A stretch of 55,682 bases of DNA from Acidobacteriota bacterium (GTDB taxonomy: Bacteria; Acidobacteriota; UBA4820; DSQY01), in contig JBBIKI010000005.1 in the NCBI GenBank assembly GCA_037445535.1, forward strand, positions 1-55,682, written 5' to 3'. This document shows positions 33,339 to 33,706 of the stretch, in pieces. Below the pieces are notes generated by a model. The model was not told the origin of the DNA. It ran no database searches and saw only the letters and a list, made by a program, of their open reading frames with translations. The first letter of the stretch is position 1. Every line of letters starts with the position of its first letter. The position numbers and the translations under genes were made by a program.

Positions 33339-33527
33339 ATGAACGTCGACCGAGTTGTTCGCGCTATCGCCGGAACTTTCGTGCTCGTTTCCCTCGCCCT
33401 CGGGCACTGGGTCCATCCGTACTGGTACTTTTTTACGGCCTTCGTGGGTTTGAACCTCTTCCAGTCGGCCTTTACCAACTGGTGTCCCGTTATCACGATT
33501 TTGAAGAAAGCAGGTGTGCCTCAATGA
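33339..33527 (+). CDS. DUF2892 (YgaP-like) small membrane protein
   Basis: DRVVRAIAG...[25 protein letters not shown]. Confidence 0.88.
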
Positions 33528-33706
33528 CCTTGCATGATGCCCTCGCCATGGGAGCCATTCTCGTGGCGTGGTATCTCCTGAACCGGTTTCTCTTACCAAA
33601 AATGGGGGTGTCTACCTGAATGTCGCAATCCTGTGGGGTCGGGTCCGGCCCCGAGCATGATTCAAGGAGGAAGTCCGATGTCGGCAAACGTGATGGAGAT
33701 CAATGA
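33524..33706 (+). CDS. Unannotated single-pass membrane microprotein; 31 aa if TGA 33617-33619 is a stop, 60 aa candidate selenoprotein if it is read as Sec
   Basis: ATGA overlap with the DUF2892 stop. Sequence [31 protein letters not shown]-(TGA)[28 protein letters not shown]; SECIS-like hairpin at 33635-33652. Confidence 0.6.
33635..33652 (+). promoter_or_regulatory. Candidate bacterial SECIS element
   Basis: Stem GGGGTCG/CGGCCCC (7 bp, one G-U) with a GGTC loop starting 22 nt after the in-frame TGA. Confidence 0.55.

Follow-up and report, generated by a model that had tools for sequence, protein, structure and literature searches.

A probable membrane-anchored selenoprotein encoded between a DUF2892 gene and trxA in an Acidobacteriota bacterium

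The selenopeptide locus and conservation of its in-frame TGA

The DNA considered here, which we call the window, is a stretch of 55,682 nucleotides from an Acidobacteriota bacterium (GenBank assembly GCA_037445535.1, contig JBBIKI010000005.1, positions 1 to 55,682 of the forward strand). Between a gene for a YgaP-like_TM/DUF2892 protein and trxA it carries a short reading frame with an internal TGA, the candidate selenocysteine (Sec) codon of what we refer to as the selenopeptide gene. From 33524 this frame encodes 31 hydrophobic residues ending in LLPKMGVST, meets the TGA at 33617-19, continues as MSQSC and a charged tail, and stops at a second TGA at 33704-06, with Cys37 five residues past the in-frame TGA. 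Its ATG (33524-26) overlaps the TGA stop of the DUF2892 gene (33525-27), and at the other end it runs 29 nucleotides into trxA, which starts with an ATG at 33678 behind an AGGAGG at 33665-70. An initial annotation of the window, made from the sequence alone, had given the coordinates of the frame and of the TGA, the ATGA overlap, a Cys five residues past the putative Sec, and a 60-residue read-through product ending 29 nucleotides into trxA, and all of these agree with the sequence. The features of the locus are as follows.

33339..33527, + strand: upstream YgaP-like_TM/DUF2892 gene, 62 residues, two helices (Pfam PF11127, E 2.1e-14)
33524..33706, + strand: selenopeptide gene, 60 codons plus stop, putative Sec at codon 32 (translation of the open reading frame; homologues spanning the TGA in 107 of 401 and 20 of 201 genomes)
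33524..33527, + strand: ATGA start/stop overlap of the DUF2892 and selenopeptide genes (sequence; NTGA context in 20 of 20 related loci)
33530..33601, + strand: single hydrophobic helix, residues 3-26, predicted membrane anchor (AlphaFold2 DSSP; alignment of 23 sequences)
33593..33616, + strand: motif L-P-[KR]-x-G-[VI]-x-T directly before the putative Sec codon (alignment of 23 sequences)
33617..33619, + strand: TGA, putative Sec codon (U32); T, G and A invariant in 43 of 43 distinct sequences
33632..33634, + strand: TGT for Cys37, proposed resolving Cys of a U-x4-C motif (Cys at +5 in 37 of 43 sequences)
33634..33653, + strand: hairpin resembling a selenocysteine insertion sequence (SECIS), 8-bp stem, GGUC loop at 33642-45 (fits a published bacterial SECIS model; covariation)
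33654..33703, + strand: charged, poorly conserved tail that holds the trxA ribosome-binding site and overlaps trxA by 29 nucleotides (predicted local distance difference test, pLDDT, <50)

The initial annotation had proposed one hydrophobic helix, and AlphaFold2, run with a 23-row alignment, likewise predicts a single helix at residues 3-26, with pLDDT values of 85-89 across residues 1-20 and a disordered tail. Within the 23 aligned sequences W16 of the helix is nearly invariant and L24, P25, G28, and T31 are invariant. Since the N terminus is neutral or acidic in this alignment and Arg and Lys come directly after the helix, the charges suggest that the tail, the putative U-x4-C pair, and the thioredoxin that is fused to it in some relatives face the cytoplasm. 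The ATGA overlap, which had been taken as a hint of translational coupling, recurs as an NTGA start context (ATG, GTG, or TTG followed by A) in all 20 related loci with DUF2892 directly upstream; the overlapping TGA was confirmed to be in frame with DUF2892 in the window gene and, by coordinate arithmetic, in locus L030. The overlap suggests that translation of the peptide is coupled to that of DUF2892.

Homologues were first sought in 60 relatives using the read-through product with stops read through, a search that did not presuppose the codon. Matches that span the TGA extend from the genus of the window to further families of its phylum, and in all 30 loci examined a TGA stands at the same codon after the L-P-[KR]-x-G-[VI]-x-T motif. 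A profile (A1) built from 23 sequences, with the TGA read as C, was run over 401 genomes of the phylum and 201 genomes of Planctomycetota. It matched 113 of the 401 phylum genomes, and in 107 of them the TGA lies inside the match. Among the remaining six, genome G359 has no stop and reads TGT (Cys), and in five the match ended before the stop; the three of these five that were inspected have TGA, with G172 and G118 outside that inspection. In Planctomycetota the profile matched 20 of the 201 genomes; the match includes the TGA in 19 of these, and in the 20th the codon was likewise read as TGA. Neither TAA nor TAG was found at the Sec position among homologues whose match spans it. The initial annotation had named mixed stop codons as a finding that would speak against Sec; what is seen is TGA only (30 of 30 loci; 107 of 113 genomes) plus one Cys codon.

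The frame past the TGA is conserved as well, a point to which the same annotation had attached weight. In all 43 distinct sequences frame 0 remains open for at least 17 codons past the TGA (range, 17 to 65; median, 26). A Cys occurs at +5 in 37 of them, at +6 in one, and is absent in five, and the codon at +5 varies only in its third base (TGT/TGC). In one subclade (L079, L080, L081, and L087, from genomes G282, G140, G255, and G388) the TGA and a GC-rich hairpin are kept and the TGA is followed by [A/G]-V-[P/R]; here the putative resolving residue, if there is one, is a different one. An apparent 388-residue fusion in G255 was rejected as a wrong-frame open stretch in high-GC DNA. At another locus (L036, G022:C12) the anchor frame is broken by a stop 21 codons before the TGA and there is no start at the usual place, which may reflect a frameshift, an assembly error, or a decaying copy.

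A DNA pattern search over one genome per species required the TGA, and is hence uninformative on codon choice, and returned at least 120 stretches. Among the matches listed, all 80 loci examined look like family members by eye. The record titles among these matches name Desulfobacterota and Thermodesulfobacteriota lineages, Geobacterales, Syntrophobacteraceae, and Acidobacteriota, and further Planctomycetota (including a Kuenenia metagenome-assembled genome), Armatimonadota, KSB1, Spirochaetes, Fibrobacteraceae, Deferribacteres, and Obscuribacteraceae; one cultured strain among the matches listed is Geomobilimonas luticola JCM 17780, whose record carries a family member at L110:320-361. In the genomes sampled with the profile, the TGA form predominates over the Cys form (107 versus 1 in the phylum sample and 20 versus 0 in Planctomycetota). 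Going by these counts, the family is unusual in that its putative redox residue is almost always Sec and not Cys in the Sec-using genomes sampled.

A homologue with a Cys codon in place of the TGA is the classical test of translation past it. In G359 (99% complete), which gave no selA match and no SelB-wing_3 match, the Sec position is TGT, after which the frame runs on through MSGAC and a further 24 codons. When 1.84 billion representative proteins were searched by profile, 1556 relatives came up at E ≤0.001, 57 of them at E ≤1e-10; source records call the relatives only "hypothetical protein". Among the best 150 of the 1556, 108 have a Cys at the position and another at +5 (C-x4-C), Trp stands there in 22 and Gly in 2 with the Cys at +5 kept, and 5 stop there. 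Such C-x4-C forms are plentiful in metagenomes. We take the Trp and Gly forms, which include P0028, P0032, P0035, P0036, P0060, P0064, P0095, P0030, and P0114, to arise where metagenome gene callers applied another genetic code to the TGA; such a database artefact would hide a selenoprotein. On this evidence the family motif is a putative [U/C]-x4-C placed directly after the predicted membrane helix. A collection of 5.8 billion proteins contained no protein of 33 to 107 residues sharing words with the read-through product, and for one Cys form the ESM Atlas gave a single unnamed cluster at 0.85, which we treat only as a lead.

The downstream hairpin and the selenocysteine machinery

Fifteen nucleotides past the TGA, at 33635-52, lies the hairpin GGGGUCG / GGUC / CGGCCCC, which a terminal U33634-G33653 pair extends to 8 bp. 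Its stem energy is -13.1 kcal/mol and the UGA-to-loop spacing is 22 nucleotides. A published model of the bacterial SECIS has a loop of 3-9 nucleotides, a stem of 4-16 bp, a G in loop positions 1-2, a spacing of 16-37 nucleotides, and a minimum free energy of ≤-7.5 kcal/mol (PMC13188914, Fig. 2 legend). The window hairpin fits this model on all four counts.

A contiguous hairpin of at least 5 bp that starts 12-24 nucleotides past the TGA is found in 43 of 43 distinct Sec forms, and one of at least 7 bp in 34 of the 43. As a background we used 4798 TGA-ending open reading frames (at least 150 codons) of the genome from which the window comes, in which the corresponding rates are 28.1% and 5.4%. 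The Cys forms, represented by 66 distinct DNA sequences retrieved from metagenome contigs with TGY in the pattern, are at this background rate: 23 of the 66 reach 5 bp and 3 reach 7 bp. The hairpin is also kept in loci that have no trxA downstream. Judged by this distribution, the putative element is tied to the TGA.

Covariation was tested on an essentially ungapped MAFFT alignment. The 7-bp helix is paired in 68.4% of cells, compared with 55.8 ± 1.9 in shuffles (reached by 0 of 500), and the covariation score is 0.381, compared with 0.212 in shuffles (again 0 of 500), with double changes at all 7 pairs. In one example of compensation, a change of GTC to ACC in the 5' arm (Val to Thr) is matched by a synonymous change of GGC to GGT in the 3' arm. 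A +1 slide in this test reflects a subgroup with 3-nucleotide loops.

Co-occurrence with the machinery for Sec insertion, which the initial annotation had singled out as a check, is evident. The genome from which the window comes (98.7% complete) has selB (296.6 bits, over the cut-off), selA (455.3 bits), selD (338.1 bits), and tRNA-Sec (73.9 bits). When selA was called at E ≤1e-40, it was present in 301 of the 401 phylum genomes, comprising 105 of the 107 carriers of the TGA form and 196 of the 294 non-carriers. Of the two carriers lacking a selA match, G024 is 64% complete and G241 carries a SelB wing domain. Among carriers from other phyla selA was found in four of five, and the fifth has a SelB wing domain. 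The selD gene of the window genome (L010, G000:C24:14791-15711, - strand) itself has one in-frame TGA, so that selenophosphate synthetase is itself a selenoprotein in this organism.

From the comparative data we consider it highly probable that selenium is actually inserted at UGA32. Guided by the hairpin with the GGUC loop, which begins 15 nucleotides further on, SelB-tRNA(Sec) would decode the UGA of codon 32; without selenium the ribosome would stop there, releasing a 31-residue anchor. The recoding mechanism is the ordinary bacterial one. If, instead, the TGA were an ordinary stop, translation would yield nothing beyond the 31-residue anchor. The hairpin ahead of trxA would then serve mRNA stability or attenuation, and the peptide conservation downstream would be an RNA by-product. 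Gene callers do predict forms of 29-31 residues (P0106, P0125, P0133, and P0150), and 28% of the TGA stops in the window genome have a hairpin of at least 5 bp downstream. Likewise, the local fold is unexceptional: the 76-nucleotide stretch, which is GC-rich, folds no better than shuffles (z = -0.14), so that the case rests on the comparative data. Those data, however, leave the ordinary stop very little room. A Cys codon takes the place of the TGA with the frame continuing, as M-S-G-x-C in G359 and in 108 of the best 150 public relatives, and the Cys at +5, which lies upstream of the hairpin, is kept with synonymous wobble. Furthermore, TGA is exclusive in more than 120 genomes of two phyla, selA is nearly always present in carriers, and the hairpin falls to the background rate where the codon is TGY but persists where no trxA follows. 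We therefore regard an ordinary stop as very improbable.

Taken as a whole, our best explanation, which we think very likely to be correct, is that positions 33524-33706 are a real gene for a 60-residue single-pass inner-membrane selenoprotein that is translationally coupled to DUF2892. Apart from the fold, a number of observations weigh against it. A strict energy measure restricted to contiguous stems places only 81 of 134 distinct family sequences within the SECIS model on all four counts, compared with 144 of 1500 background stops (9.6%), and the family sequences that fail this strict measure have shorter stems. A search of the whole window at Rfam gathering scores gave no match, and at E ≤10 only a chance long noncoding RNA match appeared near the site; the sequencing-run listing showed no RNA run containing the stretch. 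The gene for SelA was not found in G241 (95% complete) or in G402, the SelB wing domain being present in both. The Fisher odds ratio of 26 for the association of the TGA form with selA is descriptive only and overstates it, as related genomes are not independent, and the 401-genome tallies take in three unpublished genomes (G052, G076, and G170), all of them non-carriers, on which nothing else in the analysis depends. The Cys at +5 is missing from 5 of the 43 sequences, and one subclade has a Cys at +12 to +15 or none, so that U-x4-C is not universal. The pLDDT is below 50 in the tail, the U-x4-C stretch included, and the predicted structure thus gives no support to a selenenylsulfide. Finally, the 29-nucleotide overlap with trxA is not conserved, and beyond the family and order of the window DUF2892, thioredoxin, and FmdB genes are near only a minority of loci.

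Neighbouring genes and proposed function

The genes that surround the DUF2892-selenopeptide pair in the window are the following.

27205..33270, + strand: SUF iron-sulfur (Fe-S) assembly operon, namely Rrf2 regulator, SufC, SufB, SufD, SufU (NifU_N), Rieske-like protein, SufS (Pfam matches)
33678..34004, + strand: trxA, 108-residue thioredoxin with WCGPC (TIGR01068, 131.5 bits; PF00085, E 2.8e-33)
34035..34247, + strand: FmdB-family CxxC...CxxC zinc-ribbon gene (TIGR02605, 59.7 bits)

Of 30 related loci, 24 have trxA directly downstream, 23 have an adjacent DUF2892 gene, and 18 show synteny with sufS. Linkage of the selenopeptide/trxA module to SUF is seen only in the family and order of the window. 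Locus L161, in an Acidobacteriota metagenome-assembled genome, shares both the gene order sufS, DUF2892, selenopeptide, trxA, fmdB and the anchor peptide with L030, a locus of the window's own family. Within the SUF operon of the window, which is complete and stands behind an Rrf2-type regulator, a 105-residue Rieske-like [2Fe-2S] gene (31697-32014) is placed between sufU and sufS.

The surroundings differ in more distant relatives. Of 109 diverse Sec-form loci, 8 have DUF2892 no more than 1.5 kb away, in each case on the same strand, and within 600 nucleotides of 80 of these loci we find FmdB in 10, thioredoxin in 6, and DUF2892 in 4. The FmdB zinc ribbon is thus the most frequent close neighbour in diverse taxa. 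FmdB is itself listed as a selenoprotein family with a UxxU motif (PMC13188914, Table 1); the FmdB gene of the window is an all-Cys form. A survey of upstream neighbours by crude same-strand picking of open reading frames, which is insensitive, gave in 71 cases rhodanese (5), ArsR-type helix-turn-helix proteins (4), AhpC/TSA (3), and metallo-beta-lactamase (3), along with thioredoxin-like proteins.

The links are stronger around the Cys forms. Of 80 such loci, 30 have a thioredoxin homologue and 21 a DUF2892 gene no more than 1.5 kb away, in every case on the same strand. In addition, five in-frame fusions join the anchor, C-x4-C, a linker, and thioredoxin, two of them database proteins (P0141 and P0086) and three on contigs (L235, L237, and L262), the linker in the contig fusions being about 35 residues long. 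Of the evidence for joint action of the peptide and TrxA, these fusions are the strongest. No in-frame fusion of DUF2892 to the peptide was found (0 cases). Complex prediction for DUF2892 (A4) with the 31-residue anchor (A5) returned scores of 0.00 and 0.00, which carry no weight either way. In the DUF2892 partner, C49 and P50, near the C terminus, are invariant in 19 aligned orthologues. A DUF2892 gene was reported to be induced about 10-fold in Azospira under perchlorate-dependent H2S-oxidising conditions (PMC5358917).

How might such a peptide function? Judging by the charges, the helix would hold U32-x4-C37 on the cytoplasmic side of the membrane, where the pair may cycle between the selenol/thiol and the selenenylsulfide state. 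The thioredoxin encoded directly downstream would re-reduce it; in some organisms the Cys form is fused to such a thioredoxin. Redox cycling of the peptide with thioredoxin is, on the strength of the neighbouring genes and the fusions, somewhat favoured in our estimate. What oxidises the pair, or serves as its substrate, would probably be a sulfur species or a protein thiol associated with the membrane. The Cys-Pro site of DUF2892 is one candidate and the persulfides handled by neighbouring rhodanese-type genes are another, although that either of these is the actual partner is a tentative and rather doubtful proposal. Overall, the peptide could act as a thioredoxin-recycled selenol/thiol relay at the inner membrane face, serving sulfur-stress or persulfide chemistry. 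The initial annotation had spoken of a membrane-anchored U-x4-C redox peptide; the anchor and the U-x4-C find support in our data, and the redox role, which we still infer, has gained from the fusions of Cys forms to thioredoxin.

A different role is conceivable for a true selenoprotein of this kind. Sec/Cys-x4-Cys might constitute a membrane metal or Fe-S ligand site that hands over or senses iron, sulfur, zinc, or a thiophilic metal. In the family of the window the gene closes a full SUF operon (sufCBD, sufU, Rieske-like, sufS), FmdB zinc ribbons are the top close neighbour in diverse loci (10 of 80), ArsR-type regulators and a cation-efflux gene occur nearby, and several listed selenoprotein families bind metal (PMC13188914, Table 1). 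On the other hand, the recurrent linkage to canonical WCGPC thioredoxin and the five in-frame fusions to it point to disulfide exchange, and the SUF synteny is confined to the family and order of the window. We consider a metal site unlikely, if the more plausible of the alternatives.

Somewhat less probable still is that the locus is chiefly a selenium-dependent switch, in which decoding or termination at UGA32 controls translation of trxA and the peptide is a leader. This would be compatible with the peptide being a membrane-anchored selenoprotein. The AGGAGG ribosome-binding site of trxA and its start lie inside the read-through frame, which ends within trxA, and in L040 the frame stops right before the trxA ATG. 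Yet most members outside the family and order of the window have no thioredoxin gene directly downstream (within 600 nucleotides in 6 of 80), protein-level conservation extends over the anchor and the motif preceding the Sec codon, stand-alone Cys forms exist, and both the tail length and the overlap with trxA vary.

Returning to the thioredoxin-recycled relay, a broader version of it can be formulated, which we put forward as speculative and which we hold to be less likely true than false. An old, widespread, and uncatalogued family of inner-membrane anchors of 45-65 residues would carry Sec-x4-Cys as the membrane end of a thioredoxin-driven relay, and the peptide of the window together with TrxA would represent the split form of a membrane-tethered thioredoxin. 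Conceivably, this relay works with DUF2892 and rhodanese-type proteins at the cytoplasmic membrane face in the handling of sulfane sulfur, persulfides, or possibly selenium, as a bacterial functional counterpart of SELENOK/SELENOS.

Novelty and comparison with known systems

NCBIfam 20.0 has no family matching at E up to 1 for the read-through product (U read as C), the 31-residue form, or seven stand-alone Cys forms. Two other stand-alone Cys forms have one unrelated match each (E 0.06-0.07), nowhere near the family cut-off, and two fusions match thioredoxin-type models only. The 119-family table of prokaryotic selenoproteins published in 2026 (PMC13188914, Table 1) lists no small single-helix protein and no U-x4-C motif, the supplements of database papers being outside this comparison. 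In the passages of the deep-Sep and BSepDB papers and of a 2022 review that were available, the word "transmembrane" is absent; "membrane" is absent from the first two and appears twice, in unrelated contexts, in the review. Within the open full-text literature, the subscription papers being outside this scope, no paper joins selenoprotein with DUF2892 or YgaP, and a wider query brought up nothing pertinent. The families OS_HP1 and OS_HP2 of the Olavius study are described in a text that gives no sequences, and their identity with the family of the window could not be excluded. We see a small but real chance that the family has already been described somewhere. Very probably, the selenopeptide represents a family of membrane-anchored selenoproteins that is new, widespread, and linked to thioredoxin.

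The family was missed because its gene has only about 30 codons up to the TGA. If confirmed, it would be one of the commoner bacterial selenoproteins, so far invisible to annotation, present in about a quarter of the sampled phylum (107 of 401) and a tenth of the sampled Planctomycetota (20 of 201), and selenoproteome counts for these phyla would be at least one gene short. Among public proteins the gene appears in truncated form or with Trp or Gly at the Sec position. Confirmation would also bring a membrane-anchored class into a catalogue in which soluble thioredoxin-fold enzymes prevail, assign thioredoxin a membrane partner of its own, and provide a first functional handle on DUF2892 proteins.

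Like many catalogued prokaryotic selenoproteins, the peptide of the window has a redox-type Sec motif beside thioredoxin and sulfur-transfer genes. The catalogued TsoB (NF045694) has a U-x4-U motif; none of 201 genomes had a match over its cut-off, the hits being DsbD-like proteins. YgaP consists of a rhodanese followed by a C-terminal DUF2892, and the locus resembles it in having a DUF2892 partner gene upstream and rhodanese in 5 of 71 upstream neighbours. The selenopeptide itself is unlike DUF2892, a two-helix hairpin with an N-W-C-P motif, in having one helix and no PF11127 match.

Among eukaryotic proteins, SELENOK and SELENOS are very small single-pass selenoproteins of the endoplasmic reticulum membrane, with an N-terminal helix and a disordered Gly/Pro/charged cytosolic tail that bears the Sec. 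SELENOS has a Cys-Sec selenenylsulfide that thioredoxin can reduce. In both the Sec lies two or three residues from the C terminus and the SECIS is in the 3' untranslated region. The peptide of the window shares the single N-terminal helix (residues 3-26) and the tail predicted to be disordered, but its putative Sec follows directly after the helix, at residue 32 of 60 and 28 residues from the C terminus, and its SECIS-like hairpin is in the coding region. No Pfam family matches the selenopeptide at E up to 1. We regard SELENOK/SELENOS as analogues and not as relatives.

TlpA, ResA, and CcmG are membrane-anchored thioredoxin-fold proteins, and the fused Cys forms (P0141, L235, L237, and L262) resemble them in combining an N-terminal anchor with a thioredoxin domain. 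Unlike the TlpA type, their anchor bears a second redox-type motif, the thioredoxin is of the cytoplasmic TrxA type (TIGR01068, above the cut-off), and the charges suggest a cytoplasmic rather than a periplasmic orientation.

The initial annotation had recognized that the apical sequence GGUC is shared with the fdhF element of E. coli, and this can be read directly in the K-12 record, where the UGA is followed by a hairpin with the top GCA / GGUC / UGC; the loop starts 21 nucleotides after the U of the UGA, compared with 25 nucleotides in the window. Both genes thus have an in-frame UGA followed by a short hairpin with a GGUC loop in the coding region, and homologues with a Cys codon exist for the family of the window. 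The fdhF product is a molybdoenzyme and unrelated to the 60-residue membrane anchor. The fdhF element has a bulged U, whereas the stem in the window is a perfect helix of 7-8 bp. As a short GGUC hairpin resembling that of fdhF, the element of the window may be suited to recoding reporters.

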